Shown here piece after piece: positions 1,125 through 21,321 of a stretch of DNA of 21,449 nt (position 1 is its first letter; each line of letters opens with the position of its first letter). The stretch covers positions 1 through 21,449 of the forward strand of contig JBEKOM010000014.1 of assembly GCA_049521795.1 (NCBI GenBank), in the 5' to 3' direction. The DNA is from Candidatus Bathyarchaeia archaeon. GTDB taxonomy: Archaea > Thermoproteota > Bathyarchaeia > Bathyarchaeales > Bathycorpusculaceae. Below the pieces are notes generated by a model. That model had not been told where the DNA came from. It saw only the letters and a program-made list of their open reading frames with translations, and made no database searches. The translations under genes were made by a program, and so were the position numbers.

Positions 1125-1136
1125 AGCGCGCGCGCT
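1125..1136. repeat. GC junction palindrome
   Basis: AGCGCGCGCGCT. Confidence 0.85.
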
Positions 1137-1340
1137 GAACAGAGAAAAAATCATACCATTATAGTTCATTAATGCAGTTACTCTGGTTGGCAATGCCCGG
1201 GGTGGAACTGTCAACAATAGAGAGTGCGTGTTGGCATTATATAATTGTTATGTATCAATCTTCTACGTCACATGATAGCGAAGCCGCCAACGGGATGGAC
1301 ATTCCACTGCTTCGGTATGGAAATAGCTACTTATTTGCTT

Positions 1341-1532
1341 TCAATCCCGTTTAGAAAACACGATGGCAAGTCCAAAGGTCAGGTTAATCCCAAAGAATCC
1401 TAGGATTGCTAGTGGGTAGGAATATGAAAAGAAGAACAAGAAAGGAGAACAAATAATCGCAAGCACGAGGGCGCAAGCATACAGGACAAACCTGAACCTT
1501 TCAATCGAGCTCATTCTGTTTCCAATCTCCAT
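1341..1532 (-). CDS. Small membrane protein, about 2 TM helices
   Basis: 63 aa with two hydrophobic stretches; overlaps the end of the upstream glycosidase gene on the same strand. Confidence 0.55.
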   Translation of the reverse strand: MEIGNRMSSIERFRFVLYACALVLAIICSPFLFFFSYSYPLAILGFFGINLTFGLAIVFSKRD

Positions 1533-3391
1533 TTCTGGCGTTTTCTTCTGTGAACTGTGACTACAAGTAGCGGCGTAATCATGGATGGTGGCAGAATAAG
1601 CAACGATGGAAACTCTGGAACCGTCTGGATGACCTGGATATAATGGTATGTTTTGTAGAAGGGCAACAGAACGTATTCTCCGTCTGGACCGATGTTAGGT
1701 TCGATCTGTGACCTTTCATGGTACTCGTTCCAGCTGTAGATGGCAACGATGCTTAGGTTTCCTTGATTCTCGTATTCCTGAACGGTTCTCCACTGTTGAT
1801 CGTACATACCGTCGGAATAGTTCCCGTCAAAAGTATGCGTGCCACCTATGTGGCTGTCATCATACCTCGGTTCGATACAAGTAAAACCGTCCATCGAGAG
1901 CTCTGGAAAAATGTTAGGATAACCTATGCTGTCTTGGCTTGTGCTGCAGGGTCTCCAGGCATACCAATCTACATAGGAAGGAGTCTGACCCACTATTCGA
2001 GCAGAGAAGCCTATGGCGTTGTGTATGGCATCTCGACTTGCTTGAGTTGCGGTCATGTTGATGTTGTCGTTCCAGAAGCAAACCAGAGGCATGCCATTCA
2101 GCTTCATGTAGATGCTCTCGTACGGTGCAACGTAAGTATCGTTGATGTAGTCGTATATCGCGTTGAAGTCGTACATGCCGCTCCAGTTGTAAGCCTCAAC
2201 CATGATGGCGATCTGAATTGGATAATCATATTGCTTGACCATGGAGAAAATGGCTTTAGTTGCGTCGTCTTCGAAGGAGTGTGGTCCCCACCAAGAGATG
2301 ATCAGGAAGTCGATGCCGAGTTCCTTGAACCATTCTAGGTGCTGCTTGATCACTTTGGGATCTGATGAATTGTAGAATCCCAGGAGAGGTGTGTCCATAA
2401 CCGTCCAACCTGAACTGCCATTCCAGTGACCTTTTCCCAACTCTCCTGTGTACCAAACGTAATAGAACAGTCCAACTTTAACGTGCTTGCACACATTTGC
2501 AATGACTACCAACGCGGTGGTTTCTGTGTTTTCTGTGTGGCCTGCGGTTGATAGATTTTTGTCGTATCCTGTCGCTATGCCGCCGTCTGGCCCTTGACAA
2601 GCTGCTAGAATATCTTCCATCTTCGTCTCTTGAGGAGGCTTTGGAAGTTTCAAGCGCTGACGAAGGATGATCGCCAATGCGAGTTTAAACGGTTCATAGT
2701 AACCGTATTGTGGAGCCTTTGTATTGTTGTGCGCTGCATCTGCAAACCCGAATCCGTCCCACATACTCATCATGTTGTTATAGCAGGCCATCGCATCTGT
2801 TGCATCGCCGCCGTTTAGGAAGCTCATTCCCATCCATGCTAACTCATCCGAATAGTTCATCCAATCAGGCCAGACGCTTCCGTTGTCCACCTCAGTCGCA
2901 ATCAAGTGTGAGTCTTTTTCAGTCAGATTAATCAGGTTGTAACCATGAGGCACTCCGGCTGGCAACTTGTCTCCAATGATTGGTTCGTGTTTGAAGGAGA
3001 TGGGCAGTCCATTTGGGTCCGTTGGCAATGAATAGTTCTTGGCATAAGCCTCTATCTGGTTTTTGATTGCGTCGCTTATGGTCTTGTTGTATGGTTGAAG
3101 TGCGTAGTAGGCAAGGAGGTTGTCGGTGACTATCCAAAAGACCTGTCCTAGAAATCCCAGACTGTTGCCGCTGTCGCCATAGACTTCTGAGCACAGCCCT
3201 AAAGTGGAGTCGTAAGTACGGTCAATAAGGAAGCCTGCAGCCTTAGCAGAAACAGAAGAGTTGCCAACGTCCAAGCTTGCCAATTCCGTTGTTACGGAGT
3301 TTCCCACCATGGCTGGCACAAACGCTGAAATCACTGTGATCCCCACAAGCCACAAAGCGATAATGCGACCGGCAATTCTGCGGTTTCTCAT
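1511..3391 (-). CDS. Secreted/surface GH99-like glycoside hydrolase with an extra N-terminal domain and C-terminal PEF-CTERM sorting signal
   Basis: N-terminal basic plus hydrophobic signal (MRNRRIAGRIIALWLVG). GH99-type motifs FYYVWY, PLLGFYNSSD, GIDFLIISWWG, YSWNEYHERSQIEP. C-terminus VPEFPSLLIL...VVTVHRRKRQK. Start moved to ATG 3391. Confidence 0.8.
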   Translation of the reverse strand: MRNRRIAGRIIALWLVGITVISAFVPAMVGNSVTTELASLDVGNSSVSAKAAGFLIDRTYDSTLGLCSEVYGDSGNSLGFLGQVFWIVTDNLLAYYALQPYNKTISDAIKNQIEAYAKNYSLPTDPNGLPISFKHEPIIGDKLPAGVPHGYNLINLTEKDSHLIATEVDNGSVWPDWMNYSDELAWMGMSFLNGGDATDAMACYNNMMSMWDGFGFADAAHNNTKAPQYGYYEPFKLALAIILRQRLKLPKPPQETKMEDILAACQGPDGGIATGYDKNLSTAGHTENTETTALVVIANVCKHVKVGLFYYVWYTGELGKGHWNGSSGWTVMDTPLLGFYNSSDPKVIKQHLEWFKELGIDFLIISWWGPHSFEDDATKAIFSMVKQYDYPIQIAIMVEAYNWSGMYDFNAIYDYINDTYVAPYESIYMKLNGMPLVCFWNDNINMTATQASRDAIHNAIGFSARIVGQTPSYVDWYAWRPCSTSQDSIGYPNIFPELSMDGFTCIEPRYDDSHIGGTHTFDGNYSDGMYDQQWRTVQEYENQGNLSIVAIYSWNEYHERSQIEPNIGPDGEYVLLPFYKTYHYIQVIQTVPEFPSLLILPPSMITPLLVVTVHRRKRQKWRLETE

Positions 3392-3437
3392 CACATTTTC
3401 CGAAACCAATCTGAATGAAGGGGACAACACTCTTGTT

Positions 3438-4496
3438 CTAAGATAATGGCCGAGCATTTGAAATTCTCCAATATTTGAAACTTTCTCTTAACGCATAGGA
3501 TAAGGAACTTCTTAACAGCAGAGAATGTGGAGTGGTGCAGCCTGTAAGGCAAGGGCCACAGTTCGCTCGTTTGCTTAGTACCGTGTGGAAACGTTCGGAT
3601 CTGAGCATTTCTTTTATGTTGGATTGAAGGAGGGATCCGATTGTCCAGCTTGGATCAGGTAGGCCGATGGGGCAGATTCGCAGTTCGCCTTTCGGATTTA
3701 CGCCAAGGTAGAGGTAGCCTGCATCGCATAGACGTGGCATCTCGTTGTTGAGGAATTTTCTTATCAGTTCGATCATGTTGACGGAAGGTTCGAGGAGTTT
3801 TGGGTTCTCACTTTTCAGGTTCAGAACACTTGCTAGAAAATCGTTGATTTCTCGTTTGGGAATGCTGAGGTCTTGATACGATAACCCATCTTCGGTTGTT
3901 ACAGGGCAGAAGCTGACCACTACGCCCAGGTCTTGTAACCATCTGGCGAAAGCGACCAGTTCCTTGTAGTTTCTCTTTGTTAGAACGAAGTTTACTCCTA
4001 CCAAACAGTTTCCCTTTACTCGGAGAAGGTTTTTGAGCCCGATGATCGCTGCATCAAAACTTCCCTGTTCTCCTCGAATCTCGTCATGAGTGGCAGAGAA
4101 CCCGTCTAAGCTGACGAATACCCCGTCGAACGATCTGGCAATGGACATTGCGCGTTCAGGGGTTATCAATGTGGCGTTAGTGTTTAATCCCATGAAAACT
4201 CCGCGACTCTGGCCATACTGTGCGATGGCTTCAAGGTCTTTTCTGACGAGCGGTTCACCCCCTGTTATGCCAATTATAGGAACGCCGTAGCCTGCAAGTT
4301 GTTCAACAACGTGCTTAGCTTGCTCCGTTGATAATTCTTCGTGACTTCTTTCTTTCCAAATGTTGCAGAAAACGCATCTACGGTTGCATCGTAACGTGAT
4401 CTGATAACTGACAAACAGGGGTCTTGGTCTTCCCATCTTGTATCTGGCAAAAGTTTTCACGATGCCTATGCCTTTCCAAATGCCTCTAATATCCAT
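3438..4496 (-). CDS. Radical SAM protein with SPASM/twitch C-terminal domain
   Basis: CNRRCVFC (CxxxCxxC), ITGGEPL, VSLDG...HDEIRG; C-terminal CDAG...G.LRICP...CGPCLTGC. Confidence 0.9.
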   Translation of the reverse strand: MDIRGIWKGIGIVKTFARYKMGRPRPLFVSYQITLRCNRRCVFCNIWKERSHEELSTEQAKHVVEQLAGYGVPIIGITGGEPLVRKDLEAIAQYGQSRGVFMGLNTNATLITPERAMSIARSFDGVFVSLDGFSATHDEIRGEQGSFDAAIIGLKNLLRVKGNCLVGVNFVLTKRNYKELVAFARWLQDLGVVVSFCPVTTEDGLSYQDLSIPKREINDFLASVLNLKSENPKLLEPSVNMIELIRKFLNNEMPRLCDAGYLYLGVNPKGELRICPIGLPDPSWTIGSLLQSNIKEMLRSERFHTVLSKRANCGPCLTGCTTPHSLLLRSSLSYALRESFKYWRISNARPLS

Positions 4497-4598
4497 CCTT
4501 TAACCCCGCTACGTTCCTGCAGCTCTTCTTCCGTCATTCGACAGGAAGCCGAGACACGCAAACTCCTTACGATCAATAAACAACTAGATGCAGTTAAT

Positions 4599-4694
4599 TC
4601 CTACTTTGTTGACCAGCAGGTCAACGATTGTTGACTTGCACCTTACATGTGCGCGCTCTACGACTGTTGATTGGACGGTTAGCTTTCGGTTGAC
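4599..4694. promoter_or_regulatory. Candidate operator array (GTTGA/TCAAC half-sites) in the divergent radical SAM / ArsR intergenic region
   Basis: GTTGACC-N4-GGTCAAC 4608-4625; GTCAAC-N4-GTTGAC 4620-4635; TCTACGACTGTTGA 4657-4670 (12/14 identical to 4621-4634); GTTGAC 4689-4694. Confidence 0.45.
4649..4657. repeat. GC junction palindrome (variant)
   Basis: GTGCGCGCT. Confidence 0.65.
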
Positions 4695-4744
4695 GAGACA
4701 AGAATTATCTACATGTTAATTGCAGAAGAGTCTTAGGACTTGCA

Positions 4745-5851
4745 ATGGTAGATGCTGCAGAGCTCTTCGAAGCGATCTCTCATCCTGCGCGGATCAGAAT
4801 TCTGAAAGCTCTCGAGAAGCAACCCTCGAGCTTCGCTTCCTTGAAGAGACAACTGGGCATCGATAGCAGTGGAAACCTTGACTACCACCTCAAGAAACTC
4901 GGTCAACTCGTAACGGTTCGACAAGACGGATTGTATGCGCTCACAGACGTGGGAAAGGAGGCTCTTCTGTCCATTGACGCAGTAGAAATGTGGACAGATA
5001 TGGAAAGGCACAAGGCTAAGATGTTCACGAAAATGCCGAAGGAAGCGCTTTCCCTAGGGCTTCTGGAAATCTGCACGACCGTTTCAATCTTGGTGTTCTT
5101 TCTGACGCTAGTGCAATTGCCCCAGTCTACGGACAATCCATGGGGGTTCTTGTTTTTTGGGGCTCTGTTGTTCACAGGTTTCTGTTCTGGCTTTGGCATA
5201 TTTGTCCGTTGGAGATGGAGTTGGATCATGGTTTTGGCCAAGTCGGCTTTGATCATGTCGATGGGTCTCTTTCTGCTGAATTACTTGTGGAAACCAGAAT
5301 TGGTTATTATTAGTCAATCAAGCTCCGTGGCGTTGTGCTACTTGGCATTTGTTGCTGCAGAAATAGCTACTGTGGTGGTGGCATTAAGGCATCCTCTGAA
5401 GGATTTCCTTGGAATAAGCAAGATCAAACTGTCCTATCTTGACGTCTTCAGTAGCCTATTGTGCATATCCAGCGGACTACTTTTGGTTCTACTTGAGAGT
5501 GCAGTTCGTTTTCCTATAGCAGCAGAACTATCGAGTGACCCGGTCAGGGTGGTCAGTAACTTCAGTTGGGTCAGTACAGTTTTCACTTCCGTATCTGACA
5601 CGTCCATCCTGTGCGGTTTGCTCATAATGGTCGGAGGCGTTCTGATTCTGGTGGGAAGCAGCACTATTGGCGCTGTGATTAGCATCATCTTCGGGTTTTT
5701 TCCACCTCTTCCGTACACTCATCATGTGTACGACATCATTGCAGCGATGCCCACGTTACCTTATGCTCTAGTGATCGCCGTGCTGGTTGGCTCTCTGCCG
5801 ATTGTCGGAGGACTACTCGCTCTTGCCGGTGCGCGAAGGTTATTGCGCTAG
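4745..5851 (+). CDS. ArsR-family winged-helix regulator fused to a multi-pass membrane domain
   Basis: FEAISHPARIRILKAL...SSGNLDYHLKKL...YALTDVGKEAL wHTH, followed by roughly 8 hydrophobic segments. Confidence 0.85.
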   Translation: MVDAAELFEAISHPARIRILKALEKQPSSFASLKRQLGIDSSGNLDYHLKKLGQLVTVRQDGLYALTDVGKEALLSIDAVEMWTDMERHKAKMFTKMPKEALSLGLLEICTTVSILVFFLTLVQLPQSTDNPWGFLFFGALLFTGFCSGFGIFVRWRWSWIMVLAKSALIMSMGLFLLNYLWKPELVIISQSSSVALCYLAFVAAEIATVVVALRHPLKDFLGISKIKLSYLDVFSSLLCISSGLLLVLLESAVRFPIAAELSSDPVRVVSNFSWVSTVFTSVSDTSILCGLLIMVGGVLILVGSSTIGAVISIIFGFFPPLPYTHHVYDIIAAMPTLPYALVIAVLVGSLPIVGGLLALAGARRLLR

Positions 5852-5931
5852 TGCGTAACCCTTGTTCCTTGATAATCAATGATGAAATCAGTATTTTCTG
5901 TAATATAGTATGAGGAAGAGCAGAAGCAACT

Positions 5932-6186
5932 TTACTTTTCGAACATTAACACTGGCGCACACTTCTGTCGTTTGCTTTCTTTGTTCTTGCGATCCCTGAA
6001 GTTGAGTCTCAACACATGCTTTCTTGGATTCCACTCGATCTTCAACAGGCCTGAAAAGAAGAGATCTGTTAGTATTAGGTTGGCCTCTTCCTCAATATGT
6101 TCTTGATTGTATTCATCTTCGTATTCGCTTCCTAGGTTCTCGGTAAAATCCAAGAAGAATTGTCTCGCAACTGCTTCTTTGCTCAT
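5932..6186 (-). CDS. Hypothetical protein (84 aa)
   Basis: ATG start, fills the gap with no competing ORF, divergent from the MBL nuclease; no recognised motif. Confidence 0.55.
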   Translation of the reverse strand: MSKEAVARQFFLDFTENLGSEYEDEYNQEHIEEEANLILTDLFFSGLLKIEWNPRKHVLRLNFRDRKNKESKRQKCAPVLMFEK

Positions 6187-6257
6187 CTCTACCCGCTCCG
6201 TTCCGTTCGCAAGATGCTATAAGACTCTTGTACTTATGCTCTTGTGAGGGGCTTCGT

Positions 6258-7610
6258 TTGGTTAAACTCAGGTTCTATGGCGGTGTGAACGAGATAGGCG
6301 GCAACAAGATTCTCGTGGAAGACGGGAAGACGAGGATTTTCTTCGATTTTGGGCAGTCTTTCACTTTTGGTACAGATTACTTTACAAGTTGGCTCGGACC
6401 AAGAGCGGTCAACGGTTTAGGAGATTATTTTGCGTTTAACCTGTTGCCTCGCATTAGCGGTTTGTATTCTCAGGAAATGTTGGCTTCAACCAGTCTTCGA
6501 TACGCTGAGCCTCAGGTCGACGCTGTGTTCTTGTCGCATGCTCATTTTGATCATGTAGCTCATATTCAGTTTTTGGACCCGAAAATTCCCATCTACGTCG
6601 GCGTAGGCACTAAGCTGTTGATGGAGTCGATGGAGGAGACCAGTAGTTTCTGCAGGTATGGAGAACATGAATGTCGTAAGTTTCGCACTGGGCACAGTTT
6701 TAAGGTTGATGGTGTGACGGTTGAACCGGTGCATGTGGATCATTCTATTCCGGCCGCTTATGGTTTCATCATTCACACTTCTGAGGGGTCAGTGGTCTAC
6801 ACGGGAGACCTGAGAATTCACGGTCCGAGGAAGGATCTGACTGAAGATTTCTTGGAGAAGGCCCAGAGTTGTGAGCCGGTTGCCTTGATCTGTGAGGGAA
6901 CGAGGATGGTTGAGAAGGAGAAGCGGAAGAACTATTCGGAGTCTCAGGTCAGGCAGTTGAGCAACGAAGTTGTTTCTTCAACCGATAAGTTGGTGTTTGC
7001 GATGCGCTACAGTCGAGATTTGGACAGGTTTAGAAGCTTCTACAAAGTCGCTAAGAAAAATGGAAGGAAAATCGTTGTTTCGCCGAAGACCGCTTATCTA
7101 TTGAGCAAGCTTCTTGATGATGAGCATCTTGACCTTCCGGATCCGCTGAAGGATGAGGATATTCTGGTTTATTATAAGCGGAAGAAGTCAGGTGGGTTCG
7201 ATGAGAAGGACTATTATGTTTGGGAGCGAAAGTTCATGGATAAAATGGTGACGCACGAGTTTATTCACGAGAACCAAGGCAAGCTTGTAATGGACTTGGA
7301 CTTCTACCAGTTCGCAGAATTAATAGACATTAATCCGGAGCCCGGCAGTCAGTTCATTCACAGTATGAGTGAGCCGTTTAGCGAAGAAGACATTCAAGAT
7401 GACGTAATGCACAACTGGATAGACCACTTCAGAATGCACTTTCATCAGCTTCACGCATCAGGCCACTTGAACAAGGACCAACTAGTGGACTTAATCAACC
7501 GCATTCAACCCAAACAGGTTTTTCCAGTGCATACTGAAAATCAGCAGCTGTTCCTGCACTACTTCAAGAACGCCCAGACGATACAATATGCAAAAGAATA
7601 TTCTTTATGA
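6258..7610 (+). CDS. Metallo-beta-lactamase / beta-CASP nuclease (RNase J-like)
   Basis: GGVNEIGGNK, FFDFG, SHAHFDH, VDHS, YTGDLR, CEGT, HASGH and PVHTE motifs. Start moved to TTG 6258, after GAGGGG at 6246-6251. Confidence 0.85.
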   Translation: MVKLRFYGGVNEIGGNKILVEDGKTRIFFDFGQSFTFGTDYFTSWLGPRAVNGLGDYFAFNLLPRISGLYSQEMLASTSLRYAEPQVDAVFLSHAHFDHVAHIQFLDPKIPIYVGVGTKLLMESMEETSSFCRYGEHECRKFRTGHSFKVDGVTVEPVHVDHSIPAAYGFIIHTSEGSVVYTGDLRIHGPRKDLTEDFLEKAQSCEPVALICEGTRMVEKEKRKNYSESQVRQLSNEVVSSTDKLVFAMRYSRDLDRFRSFYKVAKKNGRKIVVSPKTAYLLSKLLDDEHLDLPDPLKDEDILVYYKRKKSGGFDEKDYYVWERKFMDKMVTHEFIHENQGKLVMDLDFYQFAELIDINPEPGSQFIHSMSEPFSEEDIQDDVMHNWIDHFRMHFHQLHASGHLNKDQLVDLINRIQPKQVFPVHTENQQLFLHYFKNAQTIQYAKEYSL

Positions 7611-7743
7611 AAGGAAGAATTCTAAGAACGCACTACTAACTCTCACACTCACTTCGTGTGCGTAACGCAACCGAAAGGTTTGAAAGATCTTAGGTGTAAG
7701 CACTAGGTGAATTTCAAAGGCATAAGAAACGGGTGATGAGCGA

Positions 7744-9264: not shown

Positions 9265-9275
9265 AGTGAGAATGA

Positions 9276-9809: not shown

Positions 9810-9821
9810 AACTCTTCCCAG

Positions 9822-9835
9822 AAGCGCGCGCGCTT
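9822..9835. repeat. GC junction palindrome
   Basis: AAGCGCGCGCGCTT, 12 bp after the stop at 9809. Confidence 0.85.
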
Positions 9836-9913
9836 TGAAGTTTTTTCAATGATGCCTGGGTGGAGTCGCACAGTTGGTCCATGGCTCCCTCGACTGGCTC
9901 GTTCAACGTAGCC

Positions 9914-9923
9914 AGCGCGCGTT
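9914..9923. repeat. GC junction palindrome (variant)
   Basis: AGCGCGCGTT. Confidence 0.75.
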
Positions 9924-10087
9924 TATCTTTCTTGTAGAAGAGAAATAAACTGACAAACGATGAGAACCTAACTCGACCGCTCAACAATCGGGCAACAGTG
10001 TGCGCTCAGATCATTTTCTCAGAGAATAGTGGGACCTGCTACCAACTGATTTTATATTGCTGCCTGTATCAGTATTAATCGAGAGAA

Positions 10088-12144: not shown

Positions 12145-12165
12145 TCCGTGCCAACCTCAATTCTC

Positions 12166-12177
12166 TAGCGCGCGCTA
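12166..12177. repeat. GC junction palindrome
   Basis: TAGCGCGCGCTA, 21 bp after the stop at 12144. Confidence 0.85.
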
Positions 12178-12331: not shown

Positions 12332-12343
12332 AGTGCGCGCACT
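12332..12343. repeat. GC junction palindrome (variant)
   Basis: AGTGCGCGCACT, a perfect 12-bp palindrome. Confidence 0.75.
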
Positions 12344-14034: not shown

Positions 14035-14056
14035 ACCAATGGCGAATGAACATTTT

Positions 14057-14066
14057 AACGCGCGCC
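14057..14066. repeat. GC junction palindrome (variant)
   Basis: AACGCGCGCC, 22 bp after the stop at 14034. Confidence 0.75.
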
Positions 14067-14102
14067 CTCTATCGTCCCCATCCACATGGATAGTTTAAGC
14101 TT

Positions 14103-14113
14103 TGCGCGCGCTA
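14103..14113. repeat. GC junction palindrome
   Basis: TGCGCGCGCTA, overlaps the TAG stop of 14111..14746. Confidence 0.85.
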
Positions 14114-14746
14114 TGACTCTTGCTTTAGGTCGTCAAGGGTTCTTGCTGAAAGAAATGATCTGAGACTGACATACCATCGACCTTGAATGCCTTTGATCCT
14201 TTGACCACTTTTGATGGGGTGTCCTAGCTTGGTCTTCCATTCGAAGTCAAAACTAAACTTACCGTCATTTCGGGTTTCTGTCCTCTTGTCGTCTATCTTA
14301 GCAAAACGGTCAATAGCCATCACAGGTTTCTTCACGTAGAGTGCCACGTATTCAGGGAACCTTGATTCGTCAACAGTAATCCATCTCCAACGATTATTCT
14401 TCCAAAAAGTCTCTTCGGCCCATTTTGGTTCGGAACTTGCCACAATGACAACTTCAGAGGGTCTGTAGTCGAGAGCTACTACCGGAATTCCGTGAATTCT
14501 ATCAACGGACGATACTGCACAGATAATAAGATCAACTTTGGTTTCATCATGGGCGTGCTGCAGAAAACTCTGGGCATCGAGTTCTGCCTCAACATTTTTC
14601 ACAGATCCATCTTTCATAATGCATACGTAGTCAGGCGTGACCTCTTGACTCAATTTGATCATTTGAACACCGAATTTGTCCAAGTTCTTCTCAAAGTATT
14701 TCCTAAATTGCGCCTCGCTCTTGAATTCAAGGATTTTCTTCTTCAC
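14111..14746 (-). CDS. PD-(D/E)XK-like nuclease domain plus putative PUA/EVE-like domain
   Basis: SEAQFRKYF...PDYV...VEAE...FLQHAHD...DLIIC in the N-half; YVALYVKKPVMAIDRFAKI in the C-half. Confidence 0.6.
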   Translation of the reverse strand: MKKKILEFKSEAQFRKYFEKNLDKFGVQMIKLSQEVTPDYVCIMKDGSVKNVEAELDAQSFLQHAHDETKVDLIICAVSSVDRIHGIPVVALDYRPSEVVIVASSEPKWAEETFWKNNRWRWITVDESRFPEYVALYVKKPVMAIDRFAKIDDKRTETRNDGKFSFDFEWKTKLGHPIKSGQRIKGIQGRWYVSLRSFLSARTLDDLKQES

Positions 14747-14855
14747 CGGATTGCCCCCATTTACCTCTTGGATTGAACTATGAGTTCACATCTTCATATA
14801 ATTATAACTTTCTAATTTCTAACTTTCCAAAAGAAAGAAAAAGAGAGATTTGTAG

Positions 14856-14865
14856 AGCGCGCGCT
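14856..14865. repeat. GC junction palindrome
   Basis: AGCGCGCGCT, 1 bp from the remnant's stop at 14867. Confidence 0.85.
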
Positions 14866-14866
14866 T

Positions 14867-15012
14867 TCAATTTTTTCTGCAAACAATGAGTATCTTTCTG
14901 CCTTCTTCTCTCAGATCGGCTTCAACGATCTCAAAATGCTCAGAAAGAGCGTTTTTCATCTTTGCAACCGGGTATATTGTTTCTTTAAACCTGTACTTGT
15001 GAAGCTGATAGC
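14867..15012 (-). pseudogene. 3' gene remnant, resembles the C-terminus of a class I SAM methyltransferase
   Basis: LHKYRFKETIYPVAKMKNALSEHFEIVEADLREEGRKILIVCRKN*; no start of its own; bounded by GCGCGC palindromes at both ends. Confidence 0.55.
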
Positions 15013-15021
15013 AGCGCGCTA
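15013..15021. repeat. GC junction palindrome (short)
   Basis: AGCGCGCTA, overlaps the TAG stop of 15019..15390. Confidence 0.8.
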
Positions 15022-15390
15022 CACTGTGCCAATCTTTGAAATCTCGATTATTGTTGACTTTGAGAACCAATCGTTAATCGTGTCTTCGTCTGCCTTGCCA
15101 TGATACTTAAAGTAGAGAGCATGTTTTCCCAATTCAAAAATCTCCCCACTTTCATCGATTCGAGCGTTGCCCCTAAACTGGATCTTTCCGATCTTGAACT
15201 GGACTCGATTGTCCTCAAGAATGTTTTTCATCCAGTCAGTGTACGCACCTTCATGGCTAAGATAAATTTCCTTTCCAGCTATTGCAAACCATAATTCAAC
15301 TGTGTGTGGATTTCCAGTCTTCCTACCTCTAGTCGTTAAATAGATGTACTTCTCGTCGGCGACTTTGCTAGGATCCATGTGACTCAACAC
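15019..15390 (-). CDS. Deazaflavin (F420)-dependent nitroreductase family protein (DDN/DUF385, split beta-barrel)
   Basis: YLTTRGRKTGNPHTVELWF...DWMKNILEDNRV. Confidence 0.85.
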   Translation of the reverse strand: MLSHMDPSKVADEKYIYLTTRGRKTGNPHTVELWFAIAGKEIYLSHEGAYTDWMKNILEDNRVQFKIGKIQFRGNARIDESGEIFELGKHALYFKYHGKADEDTINDWFSKSTIIEISKIGTV

Positions 15391-15636: not shown

Positions 15637-15646
15637 AGCGCGCGCA
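15637..15646. repeat. GC junction palindrome
   Basis: AGCGCGCGCA. Confidence 0.85.
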
Positions 15647-15738: not shown

Positions 15739-15750
15739 TAGCGCGCGCTT
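15739..15750. repeat. GC junction palindrome
   Basis: TAGCGCGCGCTT. Confidence 0.85.
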
Positions 15751-15840: not shown

Positions 15841-16143
15841 ATCGAGAAAATACAAGACCCATTGAAGGTTGGCAAGAACGCCTACAAACTTGTAATGGAA
15901 AACGACCGTGTGCGCGTACTTGACCTCTTCCTTAAACCAGGCGACAAGGTGGCTATGCATTACCATCCCGACCATGTGATCTACGTTCTCAACGGTGGCA
16001 AGGCAAAACTGACGTCCTCAGGAAAAACAGAGGTTATGGACATGAAAAGTGGCCAAGCAATCTTCCTCAAAAGCCTGTCCCATGACGCTGAGAACACAGG
16101 AAAAACAGATTTACATCTTTTAGTTACCGAACTTAAGAAATAG
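15841..16143 (+). CDS. Cupin-domain protein
   Basis: ENDRVRVL...LKPG...MHYHPDHVIYVLNGG...HDAENTG. The frame extends to ATC 15841 (IEKIQDPLKV) just after GGAGGTG; the track start is TTG 15862. Confidence 0.85.
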   Translation: MEKIQDPLKVGKNAYKLVMENDRVRVLDLFLKPGDKVAMHYHPDHVIYVLNGGKAKLTSSGKTEVMDMKSGQAIFLKSLSHDAENTGKTDLHLLVTELKK

Positions 16144-16144
16144 G

Positions 16145-16190
16145 GTGCGTCGCGCAATATCCCTTTCGGACGCACTAACTTTCCTATTTT
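16145..16190 (+). terminator. Possible stem-loop plus T-rich tract after the cupin stop
   Basis: GTGCGTC 16145-16151 pairs with GACGCAC 16169-16175, followed by TAACTTTCCTATTTT. Confidence 0.3.
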
Positions 16191-16237
16191 TAGCGTGCCC
16201 TTGCCGAATCCTGAATCTGTCTCGACCACAAATGACT

Positions 16238-16248
16238 TCGCGCGCGCT
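16238..16248. repeat. GC junction palindrome
   Basis: TCGCGCGCGCT. Confidence 0.85.
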
Positions 16249-16360
16249 GTACGATCGCTCTCTTCTAAAATGCCCAAACTGCGTAGCGAAAAACAAGTAG
16301 GCCGTGCATTTGAGTGGAAGGAAGGAATAAAACTTTACCCCCAAAACCTGAAACTCTTTT

Positions 16361-16807
16361 TCATCGACTATGGCTGGTTCTGATAAAGTTTTCGACATTG
16401 AAACCTTTTGACTTTACAAATTCTATCAATTCGGAAAATAGATTGTCATCCATTTGCGGGGTTCTGCTAAGTATCCAAAGGTACTTTCGGTTTGGTGTGC
16501 CTACAACCGCATAGTCATAGTCCTTCCCCAGCTTTATGATCCAATAATCACCATAGAACGGGCGGAAGAATGTTACTTTGAGTTTCGCTCCAGAGCTCTT
16601 TTCAACCACTTTTGCCTTGCCCTTTGCCTTCTTAACCTTGCCATTTCTTATGCACTCGTTGAGGACAGATATACTGCCATCTTTGGACAAAGTGTAAGTT
16701 GCTGTCGTGTCAGAACAACCTTCTTGAAATCGAGCAGGAAGATGTGCAATCTCGTACCATTTGCCCAAGTATTTTTCTAGTTCAACATGCGGCACGACTT
16801 CAAGCAT
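16361..16807 (-). CDS. blc: Lipocalin (Blc-like), no signal peptide
   Basis: VELEKYLGKWYEIA, YWII.LG.DYDYAVVG and YLWILSRTP. Confidence 0.9.
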   Translation of the reverse strand: MLEVVPHVELEKYLGKWYEIAHLPARFQEGCSDTTATYTLSKDGSISVLNECIRNGKVKKAKGKAKVVEKSSGAKLKVTFFRPFYGDYWIIKLGKDYDYAVVGTPNRKYLWILSRTPQMDDNLFSELIEFVKSKGFNVENFIRTSHSR

Positions 16808-16875
16808 GCTGCATTCCCTCTTGCGTCAAATAGGTCACTTAGCATTGAAGCAGACCCTTAATGAATAATTTTCGG

Positions 16876-16887
16876 TAGCGCGCGCTT
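16876..16887. repeat. GC junction palindrome
   Basis: TAGCGCGCGCTT, with imperfect outer arms ATAATTTTC / GAAATTAT. Confidence 0.85.
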
Positions 16888-16930
16888 CAAGAAATTATAT
16901 ATTCAGGCACCTCAAACGGAATATTGGTCG

Positions 16931-17311
16931 ATGGAAATGGAATTCACAGAAAGAGAATTCAATTTTCTAATCAAGGTTTTCTCGGAATTGCAAGCAGGGA
17001 ATCCCGATGGCAATTTTGGAAACTATGTCAAAATAACTGAGTACGCGAAACTGAACAAGAAACCCGAGTTGCTTTACTACTACTTCTACCATTATTTTGA
17101 ACCTTTGCTCACTAATGATATGCATTTTGAAAAATCCTTCTCGAATGAAGAAAAACCTCTGATGAAGAGTATATGGAGGAAATTTGAGGTTCTGAAGGAA
17201 TCTTATGGAGAACTCACGGAAAATGACCTTCTGGCGAAGTTCGGCATTGATCTAAACAGTTTATTCCTGGATTTGGGGATACACTGGAAACACCAGAGTC
17301 ACGCTCACTAA
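16931..17311 (+). CDS. Hypothetical protein (126 aa)
   Basis: ATG start, upstream TATA-like TTATATA near 16896, AT-rich codons, no competing ORF. Confidence 0.7.
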   Translation: MEMEFTEREFNFLIKVFSELQAGNPDGNFGNYVKITEYAKLNKKPELLYYYFYHYFEPLLTNDMHFEKSFSNEEKPLMKSIWRKFEVLKESYGELTENDLLAKFGIDLNSLFLDLGIHWKHQSHAH

Positions 17312-17322
17312 AGCGCGCGTTA
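17312..17322. repeat. GC junction palindrome (variant)
   Basis: AGCGCGCGTTA, immediately after the stop at 17311. Confidence 0.8.
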
Positions 17323-17431
17323 TGAGTGAGATACAGAAGGTTTTTGTTGTTTCGAGAACCCTTTGAGATAAACCGCTTTTAGTCCAGTTATCGTGTCAAC
17401 GGTTTCAGATGAACCGGCCATTACCAGAATG

Positions 17432-17441
17432 TTCGCGCGCT
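17432..17441. repeat. GC junction palindrome (variant)
   Basis: TTCGCGCGCT. Confidence 0.75.
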
Positions 17442-17477
17442 CTTCTAATTTGGAAGTCCGTTTTCTGAACAAGGTGA

Positions 17478-17921
17478 TTAGTTTCTATTGTATGATTTGC
17501 CTTCCTCACGAAGTTCCTCTGTCCATTTCTCCTTTGGCATTTGGCTGAAGATTTCTATCAAGTTTCCGTCTGGGTCTCTCAAGTGTATCACGCTTATGCC
17601 ATAGTCTGGACGTTCAGTTGGTTCAGTAATCAGTTTCACTCCCTGCTTCTTCAGTTTCACAGCCTCAGCCTCAAGGTTTTTCACACAGAATATCAATGCA
17701 ACCCTGTCTTGACATTTAGCTTCTAAGGGCAGGTTCGTTGTGCCGACATCTTTTGCCATGATGTCTCTCTTGAAAAGTGCAAGCGTGACGTTTCCAGCAT
17801 CGAAACTGGCATAGCCTTCGCCTTCTTTGCCCCATGTCATCTTGAAACCCATGATGTTGCGATAGAATCGAAAACAGTCATCGAATTTGCTAACTAATAA
17901 TCGCACATTATCCAATTTCAA
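17478..17921 (-). CDS. VOC / glyoxalase-bleomycin resistance family protein
   Basis: VRLLV..FD.CFRFYRNIMGF; YG.SVIHLRDPDGNLIEI. Confidence 0.9.
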   Translation of the reverse strand: MKLDNVRLLVSKFDDCFRFYRNIMGFKMTWGKEGEGYASFDAGNVTLALFKRDIMAKDVGTTNLPLEAKCQDRVALIFCVKNLEAEAVKLKKQGVKLITEPTERPDYGISVIHLRDPDGNLIEIFSQMPKEKWTEELREEGKSYNRN

Positions 17922-18001: not shown

Positions 18002-18045
18002 TTCAGGCTACGACTTTTCTGCAAAACCAAAAACTGATTCAAAAA
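18002..18045 (+). repeat. Dispersed intergenic repeat, copy B
   Basis: TTCAGGCTACGACTTTTCTGCAAAACCAAAAACTGATTCAAAAA, similar to 157-200. Confidence 0.6.
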
Positions 18046-18063
18046 GACTGGTAGAAGTGTCTT

Positions 18064-18522
18064 CTATTTTCGTTGTTCTCTTCTCTGCATTTCGTTGTAT
18101 AAATATTCAAACCACTCTAGTATTTCTGGTTGATTTCTGGTTTTTCTCAATTCTAATGTTGTATCTTTCATTTTTTCCCATGTCCACTTGATAGGCGTAG
18201 TGAACATATCATCAACTAACTCTATGCCTATGAGTTTTCTCTTAAGAAGAATACCGATTCCCTCAAAGAACATGCCAACTGCTGTCACTTCGGCGTAGCT
18301 TCCATACTTCCTGCGGTAATCATCATAGTCTTTTGCTTCTCTCGTCAAAACCTGTTCCCACGTCTTCTGGAATTCAAGACTGTTAAACTGCGAGTAGAGT
18401 CTCATTACAAGGTCTGTTTGTCTTATTTTAGTCTGATTTCTCATGTCCAGAACATAGTAGACAACACCAACCAGCACACCTGCTGCAGCCACCATCGCAG
18501 AAATCTCTGTTATGCCAACCAT
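18064..18522 (-). CDS. DUF4760-like membrane-anchored protein (paralog 2)
   Basis: N-terminal TM, RQTDLVMRLY, FFEGIGILLKRKLI, WEKMK, FEYLYNEM. Confidence 0.75.
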   Translation of the reverse strand: MVGITEISAMVAAAGVLVGVVYYVLDMRNQTKIRQTDLVMRLYSQFNSLEFQKTWEQVLTREAKDYDDYRRKYGSYAEVTAVGMFFEGIGILLKRKLIGIELVDDMFTTPIKWTWEKMKDTTLELRKTRNQPEILEWFEYLYNEMQRREQRK

Positions 18523-18523
18523 T

Positions 18524-18985
18524 CTAACCCTTCTCCGATTGCAGCTTCTCTATTTCGTTGCCCAGATATTCTATCCCTCGACCCAATTTCGGTTGGCCGA
18601 TTTCCTTTCTGCAAATCTCAAGGAAAGGCTTCATCTTCTTCCAATATCTGGGAACGACTCCACCAAAAAGACTGTTGACTAAGTTGACATCGATTAGTCC
18701 TTTCTCTAGAAGAATCCCTATTTCATTGAAGAACACAGCAGATGGAGGAAACTCTACTTCAAACTTTTCTTGGTATGTCTTGAGGTCTTCAAGTTGTTCT
18801 GTCATAAACGTGTGCCATTCACTTTGGAAGGTTTCTGAGCAATAGATTGAATACAAGTTAGTTATGAGGTCAGTCTTTCTCTGTTTGACTAGATGTCTAA
18901 GCTCCAAAACGGTGAGCACAACACCGACTAACACTCCTACTGCAGCAATAATCGCTGAGATAGAAGGTATATCTAGCATCTGCAT
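18524..18985 (-). CDS. DUF4760-like membrane-anchored protein (paralog 1)
   Basis: N-terminal TM, RKTDLITNLY, FFNEIGILLEKGLID, WKKMK, IEYLGNEI; clearly homologous to the neighbouring gene. Confidence 0.75.
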   Translation of the reverse strand: MQMLDIPSISAIIAAVGVLVGVVLTVLELRHLVKQRKTDLITNLYSIYCSETFQSEWHTFMTEQLEDLKTYQEKFEVEFPPSAVFFNEIGILLEKGLIDVNLVNSLFGGVVPRYWKKMKPFLEICRKEIGQPKLGRGIEYLGNEIEKLQSEKG

Positions 18986-19095
18986 TCCCTAGAAGACAAG
19001 ATTCAGTGTAATTAGTATTAAAGACTACATCATGATCTTCGAAAAAAAATCAGGCAGAAATCTTCTCTTTGAACATGTATCAATAAGTGTCGGTT

Positions 19096-19857
19096 TCACA
19101 GCCCATCCTTGTACGTGGCTATCTTGCCGTGGAAGCGTTGCGGTTCTCCTTTAATGATCTGCACTAATGCTCGCGCAGCTGCTTCAGGAGTTATCAGTAT
19201 TCCTTGCTTCTGCATGTCTCCAAAGACGCGATGCAATTTTTCAGCTCCGCTGCCCTTTGCTTCTCGAGCTTCTTTCTGTAGATCAGTCTCAACAGCTCCG
19301 GGTCGATAAATGAAACAGGTTATCTCTGGAACTTCTACAGCGAGTTGTCTCGCCAAATGCTCTTCAGCGGCTTTGGATAAGCAGTAAGCTCCAATCCCCT
19401 CTATGTTCCTCTCTGCAGCTCCAGATCCAAAGAAAACCGCCAAACCGCTCTTTCTTCGACGCAACTCAGGGTAGGAGAAGCGAGCAATCTGGTAAGCGGC
19501 CAACACGTTAGACCCCCAGACGCTCCCAAAGACAGCTTCAGGAAGTTCGTATAAAAAAGGACCAGGACAAGCAATCCCAGCATTGTGAATGAAACCAGCG
19601 AAACCGCCAATGTCAACCGCAGCTCTTACCATGTTTTTCGCTTTTGCAGCTGAAGCAGCGTCACCTATCACGGTTTTTGCTTCAACGCCTTTCTCTCGTA
19701 CCAAAGATACTGATTCCTCGAGAGGTTCCTTGCTTCGGGCGTTTAGGACAAGGTTGACACCATTCTGAGCGAGTTCCAAGGCTATAGCGCGACCGATTCC
19801 TCTTGAAGCTCCTGTTATGATCAGCGTTTTTCCTTTAAGATCCAATTTGCCCGTCAC
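19096..19857 (-). CDS. Short-chain dehydrogenase/reductase (SDR)
   Basis: TGASRGIG, HNAG, YCLSK (YxxxK) and PGAVET. Confidence 0.92.
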   Translation of the reverse strand: MTGKLDLKGKTLIITGASRGIGRAIALELAQNGVNLVLNARSKEPLEESVSLVREKGVEAKTVIGDAASAAKAKNMVRAAVDIGGFAGFIHNAGIACPGPFLYELPEAVFGSVWGSNVLAAYQIARFSYPELRRRKSGLAVFFGSGAAERNIEGIGAYCLSKAAEEHLARQLAVEVPEITCFIYRPGAVETDLQKEAREAKGSGAEKLHRVFGDMQKQGILITPEAAARALVQIIKGEPQRFHGKIATYKDGL

Positions 19858-19869
19858 CTGTAGGATGAT

Positions 19870-19920
19870 TCAGGAGGTTGTAGTCAGTGTTTCTAGTTCT
19901 TTCCATTCTTCTCTGAGTAT
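19870..19920 (-). pseudogene. 3' remnant of a RimJ/RimL GNAT paralog
   Basis: Translates ILREEWKELETLTTTS*; 19896-19917 is identical to 20814-20835 in the intact GNAT (ILREEWKEPKILT). Confidence 0.7.
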
Positions 19921-19952
19921 ACCTTTGAGAGCTCTGCCTCTCCACTCTTCTT

Positions 19953-20720
19953 CTAGTGCGCGGTTCCATCCTTGACTCGTTTTCGAACGAATTCCACCAT
20001 CTTGTCTGCCCACAGATTCAGATACTCGTCTCCCTTTCCAGCTTCTGCTTCACGAGGATCACCAACTACGCCGTTTTGGGCCACGGTTTTAATGCCTTTG
20101 CGCCATATGAGAGGTACTTTTTCTTCGTAGTTTCCTACGAAACCTTCTTCGGCACGGTCCATATTTACCAAATCCTTGCGCAACGCTAGGACCATTGAGG
20201 TTTCCGATTCACCTGCGTGAGCTCCTGACTTGGCAGCTGAAATTCCATGTTTTGATGAGAATTCAGCAAGCATCTTGAAAAGGGCCTGCAGATCCGTATA
20301 GGACACGATTTTGTTATCTTCAAGACTCTGATTCAGTTCATCTGTGACTTCTTTTACAGCATTGAAATTCCCGCCGTGAGATGGGAATATCACGATGTTC
20401 TTGAAACCGTGCTTTGCAAGGCTTACGCAATAGTCTCGAAGCAAACTTTTCAACGTTTCAGGTTTGATGCTGATGGTTCCTGGAAAAGCCATATGATGTT
20501 CAGAACATCCCACGTTTATGGTAGGCGCCTGAAGAGCATTACCAAGTTTCGCTGTCACTCTGGAAACCAGCGCATCGGCAATTAAAGAATCTGTACACGT
20601 AGGCAAATGAGGACCATGCTGCTCATTTGAACCGACACCGAACACAACAGTATGAAAACCTCCATCCAAAGCTTTCTTGATATCCACCCAACTCATTTCA
20701 GAAATCCGAACACTAGCCAT
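19953..20720 (-). CDS. Creatininase / MftE-family amidohydrolase
   Basis: GSNEQHGPHLP..TD, GCSEHHMAFPGT, SHGGN, HAGESETS and NGVVGDP. Confidence 0.92.
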   Translation of the reverse strand: MASVRISEMSWVDIKKALDGGFHTVVFGVGSNEQHGPHLPTCTDSLIADALVSRVTAKLGNALQAPTINVGCSEHHMAFPGTISIKPETLKSLLRDYCVSLAKHGFKNIVIFPSHGGNFNAVKEVTDELNQSLEDNKIVSYTDLQALFKMLAEFSSKHGISAAKSGAHAGESETSMVLALRKDLVNMDRAEEGFVGNYEEKVPLIWRKGIKTVAQNGVVGDPREAEAGKGDEYLNLWADKMVEFVRKRVKDGTAH

Positions 20721-20787
20721 TCCTTGTTTCTCCCAACATTAACTCGTGCGCTAACTTGTCATTTCCTACGTAAAAGAAAAAGGTTTT

Positions 20788-21321
20788 CTATAGGCGCGCC
20801 GTCAATATTTTTGGTTCTTTCCATTCTTCTCTGAGAATGCTGTAGAGGAACCAGTCAGTCCACACTCCTCTTGCAAAGTAGCCTTTACGAATTGTTCCTT
20901 CCTTCTTGAAGCCAACTTTTTCTAAAACTTTCTGAGAGGCTGCATTTCTCACATCAGTATGGGCTTGGATGCGGACTATGTCCCCCATTGAAAGAAACAA
21001 GTAGTCAACCATAATCTTCACCGCTTCAGAACAATAGCCTTTGCCCCTTTCGTCTGGAAGTAAAACATAGCCGATTTCCATTTGTCCACCCCACAGTTCT
21101 TTTAGACGGGCTACAAAACCGATTTTGCTTCCGTCTTTCTTCTCTATTATGAATGCCTTCAGCTCCACAGGAGTCTCAAACATCTTCTCCACCTCTGTTT
21201 TGGACAACTGTCGCAGAGGATTATAGTCGCCATAGAATTCAGGCATGTTCATCCATTCTGTGAAAAGTGGCAAGTCCTCTTTCTCCATAATCCTAAGATT
21301 GACATTCTTGCCTTCAAGCAA
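20788..21321 (-). CDS. GNAT acetyltransferase, RimJ/RimL family
   Basis: EIGY.LLPDERGKGY..EAV, N.ASQKVLEKVGFKKEG. Confidence 0.92.
   Translation of the reverse strand: MLEGKNVNLRIMEKEDLPLFTEWMNMPEFYGDYNPLRQLSKTEVEKMFETPVELKAFIIEKKDGSKIGFVARLKELWGGQMEIGYVLLPDERGKGYCSEAVKIMVDYLFLSMGDIVRIQAHTDVRNAASQKVLEKVGFKKEGTIRKGYFARGVWTDWFLYSILREEWKEPKILTARL
20793..20800. repeat. GC junction palindrome (variant) in the last codons of the GNAT
   Basis: GGCGCGCC, two bases before the stop codon. Confidence 0.55.

Follow-up and report, generated by a model that had tools for sequence, protein, structure and literature searches.

Alternating-GC palindromes at the gene-module junctions of a Bathyarchaeia genome and their possible origin from the tips of an IS5-family insertion sequence

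A recurrent palindrome in a 21,449-nucleotide contig

The DNA studied here, the 21,449-nucleotide (nt) contig JBEKOM010000014.1 of Candidatus Bathyarchaeia archaeon (assembly GCA_049521795.1), will be called the window. It is the whole of contig C14 of a metagenome-assembled genome (MAG), G000, of 2.44 Mb in 69 contigs (98.75% completeness, 4.37% contamination, 48.6% GC). The nearest relatives of G000 are Bathyarchaeia MAGs, and the DNA of the window is present in peat, soil and wetland metagenome runs, none of the runs listed being an RNA run. The subject of the analysis is a short palindrome of alternating G and C, written (GC)n below, that recurs between the genes of the window and that forms the tips of an insertion sequence (IS) in related genomes. 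An initial annotation had taken it for the crossover site or insertion target in a candidate integron-like cassette system.

Pfam matches agree with the gene content first proposed: GH99, radical SAM/SPASM, a methyltransferase with an MvaI/BcnI restriction endonuclease, Elf1, ParA, cupin, lipocalin, VOC and GNAT proteins, among others. The same 17 GCGCGC loci were recovered, as 28 overlapping matches. One hundred dinucleotide-preserving shuffles of the window gave an expectation of 1.90 (standard deviation 1.36, maximum 7), and 28 was reached in 0 of 100. Nine loci had been said to hold (GC)4-5; indeed, GCGCGCGC has 11 matches at nine loci (1126, 9824, 12168, 14104, 14857, 15638, 15741, 16240 and 16878), against 0.06 expected. 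Independent gene calls place 15 of the 17 loci between genes, close to the intergenic or last-codon placement originally described. The two exceptions are the site at 15014, which adjoins the stop of gene 15019-15390(-) and lies inside a 67-amino-acid (aa) gene remnant, and the site at 20794, in the last codons of the GNAT gene 20788-21321(-). Coupled genes are not split: no motif lies between ParA and its partner, between GHKL and DUF1016_N or between the two DUF4760 genes. An A precedes the motif (position -1) in 11 of 17 cases and a T follows it (+1) in 13. The sites, and the modules they delimit, are as follows.

1126..1135: (GC)5 with flanks AA and TG, intergenic
4651..4656: (GC)3, in the divergent intergenic region between the radical SAM gene 3438-4496(-) and the HTH gene 4745-5851(+); possibly background, because it is a hexamer only
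9824..9833: (GC)5, 14 nt past the stop of 9276-9809(+); left edge of an 80-nt remnant
9835..9914: gene-less remnant between two motif sites, 81-88% identical to stretches of genome G002 on its contigs C13 and C22
9915..9921: GCGCGCG, right edge of the 80-nt remnant
12168..12175: (GC)4 with full TA..TA flanks, 23 nt past the Elf1-like gene
12335..12340: (GC)3, intergenic, upstream of ParA
14059..14065: CGCGCGC, 24 nt past the ParA partner gene 13492-14034(+)
14104..14111: (GC)4, overlapping the stop codon of 14111-14746(-)
14857..14864: (GC)4, at the edge of a multi-copy gene family, most copies of which have a full or decayed motif here
14857..15010, minus strand: truncated 3' piece of this family, 88-90% identical over 14849/14857-15005/15010 to copies in G000 (contig C4), G001 (two copies) and G002
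15014..15019: (GC)3, joint of the truncated piece with the F420H2-quinone-reductase-like gene 15019-15390(-)
15638..15645: (GC)4, intergenic
15741..15748: (GC)4, 113 nt upstream of the cupin gene 15862-16143(+)
16239..16247: C(GC)4, between the cupin and lipocalin genes, which are convergent
16877..17322, plus strand: module of a promoter region and a 126-aa gene, with (GC)4 at 16878-16885 and GCGCGCG at 17313-17319 as its edges
17434..17440: CGCGCGC, 37 nt past the stop of the VOC gene 17478-17921(-)
20794..20799: (GC)3, in the GNAT gene

The window shares no long synteny with any of the congeners; individual modules have matches at dispersed positions, and these stop at motifs. The clearest instance is the module 16877-17322, which is 91% identical to a stretch of genome G005 (contig C12) bounded there by AGCGCGTGCT and AGCGCGCGCTA, with unrelated DNA outside. 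Homology of the remnant 9835-9914 to G002 stops 1-2 nt from the window motifs for the C13 copy, and 2 and 9 nt from them for the C22 copy; both copies end without a GCGCGC run. Among copies of the family at 14857, homology stops 0-10 nt from the motif, which is intact in two of them (L096, L098), decayed in two others (L097, L099) and placed about 14 nt upstream in L111. The window copy is cut 3 nt before the GCGCGC at 15014, where the other copies continue. Contig C10 of G008 lacks the creatininase stretch (about 19930-20799) and has SDR and GNAT as neighbouring genes; homology restarts there 1 nt past the 20794 site.

The possibility that these junctions are assembly chimeras was examined with Logan contigs of three further peat runs, which span motif sites at 100% identity; another run, X1, may be the source sample. 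Contigs of run X3 cover window positions 8301-9998, 14508-15101 and 17063-17576, those of X2 cover 11798-12631 and 13916-14635, and those of X4 cover 16013-16587 and 16673-17100. Since independent contigs bridge the motif sites, the junctions are not assembly chimeras. Contig joints leading from 18036 to 20801 have short sides (23-28 letters) and high depth, and therefore probably belong to paralogous GNAT/DUF4760 loci of other organisms.

The window has further features apart from the motif. Positions 10088-11742 hold a complete-looking type II restriction-modification pair, an N4/N6 methyltransferase and an MvaI/BcnI-family endonuclease, convergent with a 4-nt overlap. Two short repeats, at 5893-5968 (about 76 nt) and at 156-198 (31-45 nt), each occur many times within the genus, with identities reaching 97-100%. 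Copies of the second are clustered, for instance at 346, 912, 1273, 2212 and 2633 on contig C10 of G000. Contig depth peaks in the window bin 5452-6118 in three runs.

Distribution over the genome and over Bathyarchaeia

The window had been regarded as a special array. With 931 alternating-GC runs of at least 6 nt in G000 and the motif present in other Bathyarchaeia lineages, it is one stretch of a genome-wide pattern. The runs number 344 at 6 nt, 198 at 7, 219 at 8, 107 at 9, 56 at 10 and 7 at 11-13 nt, an abrupt end that leaves 924 of the 931 loci between 6 and 10 nt. A crude mask of open reading frames (ORFs), by which 83% of the genome is coding, assigns the (GC)4+ loci to intergenic DNA (282), gene edges (16) and 'coding' DNA (63). 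GCGCGCGC is the most over-represented intergenic 8-mer (322 observed vs 53 expected), and dinucleotide runs of at least four units number 361-419 for GC vs 8-71 for other dinucleotides. In a logo of 191 (GC)4 and 45 (GC)5 loci, the conserved positions are the GC run itself, A at -1 (65%), T at +1 (72%) and, more weakly, T/A at ±2; with none beyond, the total conserved length is only about 10-12 bp. Solo loci have A at -1 in 181 of 256 cases in G000 and in 216 of 288 in the congener G001, and T at +1 in 188 and 220, respectively. TA stands on both sides of 20 of the 256 and 20 of the 288, where 0.6 and 0.8 are expected.

G001, a closed genome of 2.35 Mb, served for comparison. Gene calls in both genomes yielded 1560 reciprocal best hits, whose amino-acid identity has a median of 92%. 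The intergenic regions of G000 were sorted by the conservation of their neighbours, with these results for (GC)4+.

Syntenic: 1054 regions, 1.8% with the motif, 0.20 per kb
At a synteny break: 136 regions, 14% with the motif, 0.92-1.2 per kb
One orthologous neighbour: 502 regions, 14.5% with the motif, 0.92-1.2 per kb
No orthologous neighbour: 558 regions, 18.5% with the motif, 0.92-1.2 per kb

When regions were limited to 50-400 nt, the motif was found in 2.6% of syntenic ones vs 9.4-22.4% in the other classes. The motif is thus depleted between conserved syntenic genes, the place where equal abundance would have spoken against the initial annotation. Its association with the junctions of variable modules is borne out by homology and synteny breakpoints, which coincide with the motif far above chance. 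A motif stands no more than 2 nt from 178 (13.4%) of the 1327 ends of nucleotide homology blocks when G000 is considered, from 244 (18.4%) for G001 and from 327 (24.6%) when either genome counts; the same distance holds for 1.7% of random intergenic positions and 0.8% of gene ends. Though DNA aligned with G001 makes up 63% of G000, it contains only 35 of the 361 (GC)4+ loci. The others are at block ends (72), within 50 nt of one (36) or in unaligned DNA (218).

Many of the stretches from one motif to the next are short and contain no gene; 150 of 598 are under 200 nt. Intervals with a single gene number 112 in G000 and 150 in G001, and in them the 5' spacer is about 100 nt (median 93-107) and the 3' spacer about 40-56 nt. 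Scars placed at random, with purifying selection acting on the functional genes among them, would be expected to produce such a pattern.

AGCGCGCGCT has 92 copies in G000 (reversed control, 1). Each of the 10 congeners has 7-114, and 20 genomes from other genera in the same family and order have 0-1. Over 301 Bathyarchaeia genomes the distribution is patchy: 19 genomes from several families hold 24-131 copies (controls 0-5) and the remaining ones mostly 0-5, with big differences inside single genera. In several genomes of family f24, such as G141, G088, G204 and G225, the reversed control T(CG)4A is elevated in its own right, at 13-26 copies. A related IS in f24 carries tips of the CGCGCC/CGCGCGC type; the elevated T(CG)4A may be a second, shifted type of scar.

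GC-tipped elements of the IS5 family

A 1117-bp IS is present seven times in genome G121, with 99.8-100% identity among four of the copies. Every copy has the ends GCGCGC-AGGGTTGTCCCG ... CGGGACAACCC-CGCGCGC, and the flanks follow the pattern xTA-IS-TAx, with TA on the left in six of seven copies and on the right in five. Because the tips are constant in seven copies with TA outside them, the (GC)3 is part of the element and TA the duplicated target. This contradicts the proposal that the palindrome is a crossover core or an insertion target: in G121, which has the one active element family that could be resolved, it is the element's own tip, and the target is TA. Two identical copies (L258, L262) have mixed flanks, TC-IS-TA and TA-IS-TC, as expected if copies with TC and TA duplications had recombined.

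A related element of 1080 bp lies at 389080-390159 in G001 and reads TA-GCGCGC-ATGCGTGTTCC...GGAACACACAT-GCGCGC-TA. It has two ORFs, one matching DUF772 (389154-389738; 7.6e-11) and one matching DDE_Tnp_1 (389755-390138; 1.1e-11). The same IS repeats also bound three units in G001 that carry passenger genes and no transposase.

524434-525305 (872 bp): cupin
922415-924963 (2549 bp): MFS transporter and receiver domain
1699345-1703031 (3687 bp): five genes

A generic scan of G001 for GCGC plus arm, followed by the reverse arm plus GCGC, found the repeat family to which the 1080-bp element and these units belong, the second of two; it reads TA-GCGCGC-WWGCGTGTTCC... and also bounds many miniature elements of about 200 nt. 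Its paired elements in G001 number 35, mostly of about 200 nt, at up to 3 mismatches, a tolerance at which some pairs may be due to chance. Another IS copy in G001 (1671434-1672548; 1115 nt) has GCGC-tipped repeats of the f24 type and a 248-aa DDE_Tnp_1 ORF. Related elements of about 1.1 kb occur in five other genomes, where the repeats begin with a GC-alternating run or lie a few bases from one. The tips are GCGCGC or CGCGCGC in G231, G171 and G121 and CGCGCC or CGCC in G192 and G284, and intact transposase ORFs of 330-342 aa occur in relatives (342 aa in G121). The initial annotation had looked to a recombinase or transposase encoded elsewhere; an IS with DUF772, DDE_Tnp_1 and (GC)3 tips is now tied to the motif. 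The window itself holds no IS transposase. Elsewhere in G000 the transposase is present as fragments only: a DUF772 fragment at 17148-17483 of contig C13, the contig densest in motifs, and two DDE_Tnp_1 fragments.

Far shorter elements with similar ends are present in both congeners. A first family of MITEs (miniature inverted-repeat transposable elements) is represented in G000 and G001 by 16 aligned copies of about 180 nt, 75-86% identical, with 18-nt inverted repeats AGCGCGYTGSCTTGTCCC; the AGCGCG register is fixed at both ends in most copies. When the end pattern GCGCGN5TTGTCCC was searched with at most one mismatch and a reversed control, G000 gave 42 ends (control 14), G001 46 (14) and G121 20 (7), as against 3 (1) in G018 and 4 (8) in G012, both relatives free of the motif. 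The repeat pattern of this MITE family is not above control in distant motif-rich genomes. At three of about five sites where G000 has a MITE and G001 a simple site, the latter is a bare (GC)n run (C1:132767, C3:175758 and C10:33806), so that the motif stands in for the element at orthologous positions.

Other observations concern these MITEs. The copy at 33123-33308 of G000 contig C11, like the 15 others, contains three tandem copies of TGTATATGCAAA, which may form a promoter-like or protein-binding array; the 8-mers GCATATAC and TGCATATA, related to TGTATATGCAAA, rank directly behind the GC run in over-representation in intergenic DNA. On contig C15 of G000 (2207-7800), two outward-facing copies of one MITE end surround 5.6 kb with seven genes and seven runs of the (GC)4 type, six between genes and one inside a gene. 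The arrangement may represent a composite unit, or one element interrupted by later insertions.

Origin of the solo motifs and comparison with known systems

Given a (GC)3 tip and a TA target, the solo sequence tA(GC)3-5Ta looks like TA, two merged tips and TA, that is, an excision scar. The explanation we favour, and hold with about as much confidence as doubt, is that the motif represents the scars and ends of a (GC)3-tipped, TA-targeting IS5-family system of IS, MITEs and cassettes, and that the scars later served as microhomology for deletions. The palindrome would be the outermost tip of the terminal inverted repeats of an IS of about 1.1 kb with DUF772 and DDE_Tnp_1 that duplicates TA. 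The same tips bound far more numerous non-autonomous derivatives, namely MITEs of about 170-210 nt and inverted-repeat units with passenger genes. A full element reads TA-GCGCGC...GCGCGC-TA, and the roughly 900 solo copies would be what remained at former insertion sites once the interior was lost. As the two (GC)3 tips are both inverted and direct repeats of each other, broken or slipped ends could pair in several registers, leaving from 3 to about 6 GC units between the TA copies. Scars would accumulate where insertion is tolerated, in intergenic DNA of the accessory genome, and these GC-rich 8-10-bp repeats would then become endpoints of further deletions and rearrangements. Because selection keeps promoter-plus-gene units intact, the scars would come to bracket whole modules. 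What the data show is how the elements are built from tips and TA, how the motif favours variable DNA and breakpoints over the whole genome, and that it replaces the element at orthologous positions; the direction from element to scar, the joining mechanism and the origin of the deletion-junction scars from the same elements are inferred.

Indel junctions bear on this proposal from both sides. Clean indels between G000 and G001 (at least 100 nt in one genome, at most 40 nt in the other; n=138) have a motif at the junction of the segment-less genome in 32-34 cases and none in 104 (about 75%). Three of the 138 are clean events of the form A-motif-X-motif-B vs A-motif-B. Some deletions begin at an existing motif, such as C4:142548 and C8:841, the former lengthening (GC)4 to (GC)5. 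Elsewhere fillers of 7-10 nt (GGCGCGCACT, CGCGCGCTAG, ACGCGCGCTG, GCGCGCGTAG) stand in for 0.5-3 kb. Independent deletions in G010 at the same C3 loci carry no motif. An 826-nt single-gene indel (G002 C5:97572-98398 vs G000 C3:137144) shows a GTCGAC direct repeat and no GC run; it is an ordinary microhomology indel at a site with a (GC)4 scar in G001.

A number of observations weigh against an origin of the motif in excised elements. In 22 of 32 motif-bearing indels the segment-holding genome has no motif at either end (seven have one at one end, three at both); in many cases the deletion reaches into a gene, of which a remnant is left. Two of the segments are intact in a third genome, G002, which makes the corresponding deletions, with (GC)4-5, the derived state. 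Of 34 motif-bearing indels, 9 have TA at most 3 nt from the left boundary and 6 at most 3 nt from the right one; for the 104 motif-less indels these numbers are 16 and 18. With no TA signal at the boundaries, a simple sequence of insertion at TA and loss of the interior fails for the deletion-junction scars. Solo loci have A/T at ±1 in 71-76% and full TA on a given side in only 24-31%, and no inverted-repeat core is left beside any window motif. The transposase is found in 7 of 19 motif-rich vs 57 of 282 other genomes (Fisher p = 0.14), and in family f24 the IS occurs in 38 of 71 genomes yet AGCGCGCGCT copies are few. In the motif-rich genomes G115, G107, G119 and G142 (family f31) and G318 (f27) the IS protein is unmatched and the repeat pattern is at background; a DDE_Tnp_1 family search, run on the first two of these, gave no match in G115 or in G107, which is closed in one contig. 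The (GC)n at non-TA deletion junctions and the motif-rich genomes without transposase are a residue outside the scar model.

This residue fits an alternative in which break repair (tailing, snap-back or templated copying with other (GC)n loci as source, followed by pairing of self-complementary tails) writes 7-10 nt of alternating GC into any rejoined double-strand break, the IS sharing or exploiting GC tips. It would account for indels without a sister motif and for short fillers in place of long segments, for boundaries away from TA, for the unit gained at C4:142548, for motif-rich G107 and G115 without a DDE_Tnp_1 match and for the patchiness of the trait across the class. It leaves the A/T and TA flanks and the identical element-tip sequence unexplained. 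Moreover, most indels are motif-less, as are the independent G010 deletions at the loci in question; the motif is rarely seen as a pure small insertion within aligned DNA (4 + 4 cases); and no enzyme for the process was found, Ku, PolX, PrimPol and reverse transcriptase lying outside the families searched. On balance we think it unlikely, though a serious rival. In a bolder variant of the 'pseudo-integron' proposal set out below, a lineage-specific end-joining activity, mimicked by the IS tips, may create the (GC)n of deletion junctions de novo; this would fit the non-TA scars and the closed, motif-rich G107 without such a transposase.

The model of the initial annotation, a crossover core at which a site-specific recombinase moves cassettes in an integron-like array, draws on the same motif-bounded module ends in different genomes (window 16877-17322 and its G005 counterpart, for example), on the three clean indel events, on the many single-gene intervals and on the coincidence of breakpoints with the motif. 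The conserved core of about 10-12 bp is, to our knowledge, too short for known tyrosine-recombinase sites, and since only this much is conserved, there is no attC-like structure: imperfect inverted repeats of attC type were not seen in the logo. Tyrosine recombinases are not associated with the motif, Phage_integrase matches numbering 10 in G000, 9 in G001, 7 in the motif-free sister-genus genome G018 and 1 in motif-rich G115. The 30 window ORFs that were scanned contain no recombinase domain, and no Y1 transposase was found in 31 relatives. Most motif-bearing indels lack the sister motifs that cassette exchange would call for, the GC run of G121 belongs to the end of a DDE transposon with a TA target, and the modules have mixed orientation and keep their own 5' regions of about 100 nt, unlike promoter-less one-way cassettes. 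An integron-like system is thus very improbable.

Equally hard to credit is a scheme in which bare (GC)n runs came first, as the preferred target of the IS/MITE family, and elements landing in their centre made the 'tips' out of target halves. G000 MITEs do lie at three sites where G001 has a bare run, and a palindromic centre would be a natural target for a dimeric enzyme. Against this, the GC runs of all seven G121 copies are constant per sub-family (6 and 7 nt) with TA, not GC, outside, the MITE register is fixed at both ends, and the origin of some 900 runs is left unexplained.

Least credible of all is a selected signal (terminator or insulator, chromatin or Z-DNA element, methylation-linked palindrome like HIP1, or uptake sequence), for although the motif is the top intergenic 8-mer, is somewhat denser in convergent (0.97/kb) than in divergent (0.47/kb) intergenic regions and often adjoins stop codons, it is nearly absent from syntenic intergenic regions and from DNA aligning with the congener, is absent from sister genera, has no C5 methyltransferase in motif-rich G115 and G113 (present in G000 only of five genomes) and shows no avoidance of GCGC or AGCGCT (observed/expected 0.86-1.05); the window also has no Rfam match.

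Several other candidates were tried and rejected. Cutting and filling by a restriction-modification system (G^CGCGC or A^GCGCT) was rejected on the same observed/expected ratios and because motif-rich genomes do not share the C5 methyltransferase, and a MITE or long repeat round each motif on the lack of conservation past ±2. RAYT/IS200 transposases (Y1 HUH, PF01797) were found in 0 of 31 genomes, with a control search matching 6 of 14 reference genomes, and IS630/mariner (DDE_3, PF13358) in 0 of 5. All-against-all protein comparison of G000 and G001 found no multi-copy transposase family, only GNAT, DUF4760, TBP, Alba, GT4, Lrp-like, ABC and similar ones, and the list of non-syntenic best hits was unproductive. 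With respect to two of these families, Alba has up to four paralogues (e.g., G000 C2:4169-5806 and C4:122291-123897), two of which in G000 are directly paired with a glycosyltransferase gene, and G001 has four TATA-binding-protein paralogues, 85-96% identical.

Returning to the excision-scar explanation, a wider and more tentative proposal, which we think has the balance of probability against it, is that in several Bathyarchaeia lineages a TA-targeting DDE transposon with self-complementary (GC)3 tips wrote hundreds of palindromic scars into accessory DNA, and that these scars, not the transposase, became the main break and rejoin points, dividing the flexible genome into units of promoter and gene whose loss, duplication and exchange take place at the scars: a footprint-driven, integrase-free 'pseudo-integron'. 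If the scar explanation is right, the past movements of transposons in a group of uncultured archaea can be read from a 10-bp scar, and there would be a reason for one short palindrome to coincide with a quarter of all homology breakpoints between two genomes of one genus. It would also be a rare prokaryotic case of genome-wide transposon footprints, implying rejoining of donor sites over donor loss, in which the footprints shape the modular gain and loss of accessory genes. In practice, the motif can flag accessory DNA and rearrangement-prone joints in Bathyarchaeia MAGs. The residue described above is the part most worth following. Searches of the literature at hand returned nothing on this motif.

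Among known systems, integron attC/cassette arrays resemble the window in their small accessory genes parted by a recurring site and in their types of cargo. They differ in having an imperfect inverted repeat of attC length and an adjacent or associated integrase, whereas here orientation is mixed, modules have their own promoters and the sites are spread genome-wide rather than in a single array. REP/REPIN sequences with RAYT are likewise short intergenic palindromes in hundreds of copies; our 8-10 bp motif is loop-less and too short for a REP hairpin, and goes without a Y1 (HUH) transposase in the relatives searched. HIP1 (GCGATCGC) of cyanobacteria is also an 8-bp GC-rich palindrome, lineage-specific and hyper-abundant, and early work tied it to deletion endpoints. 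Two papers describe HIP1 as abundant inside genes, conserved between orthologues and tied to methyltransferases (PMC5861425, PMC4390886). Our motif, unlike HIP1, lies between genes, is not retained at orthologous positions and shows no link to a C5 methyltransferase.

Closer parallels come from transposons. Mobile insertion cassettes, in which IS ends flank passenger genes, as in MIC231 of Bacillus cereus, are matched by the 872 to 3687 bp units of G001 with their IS repeats, TA and passenger genes and no transposase. The window modules differ from them in being bounded by bare (GC)n only, with no repeat cores, and the window cupin shares with the passenger cupin of G001 only the Cupin_2 fold (18% identity). 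IS5-family IS with MITEs, whose DDE_Tnp_1 transposases have DUF772 as N-terminal domain, are alike in these domains, a length of about 1.1 kb, terminal inverted repeats, TA duplication and many transposase-less miniatures; within that family we take the element, by assumption, to lie near the IS427/ISL2 sub-groups, which have 2-4-bp duplications and in some members two ORFs. The tips here are unlike theirs in being pure alternating (GC)3, palindromic and tandem-repetitive at once, and bare tip-like runs outnumber element ends about 9 to 1 (in G000, 361 (GC)4+ loci vs 42 ends). Eukaryotic cut-and-paste transposons such as Tc1/mariner, the P element and hAT leave excision footprints. We know of no description of transposon footprints as a genome-wide feature of prokaryotes, and in the searched text of a 2024 review of prokaryotic MITEs the term 'footprint' occurs 0 times. 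The resemblance would lie in structure: in such footprints the target duplication, a few terminal bases of both ends and the second target duplication together make a short palindrome, and these scars build up at former insertion sites.

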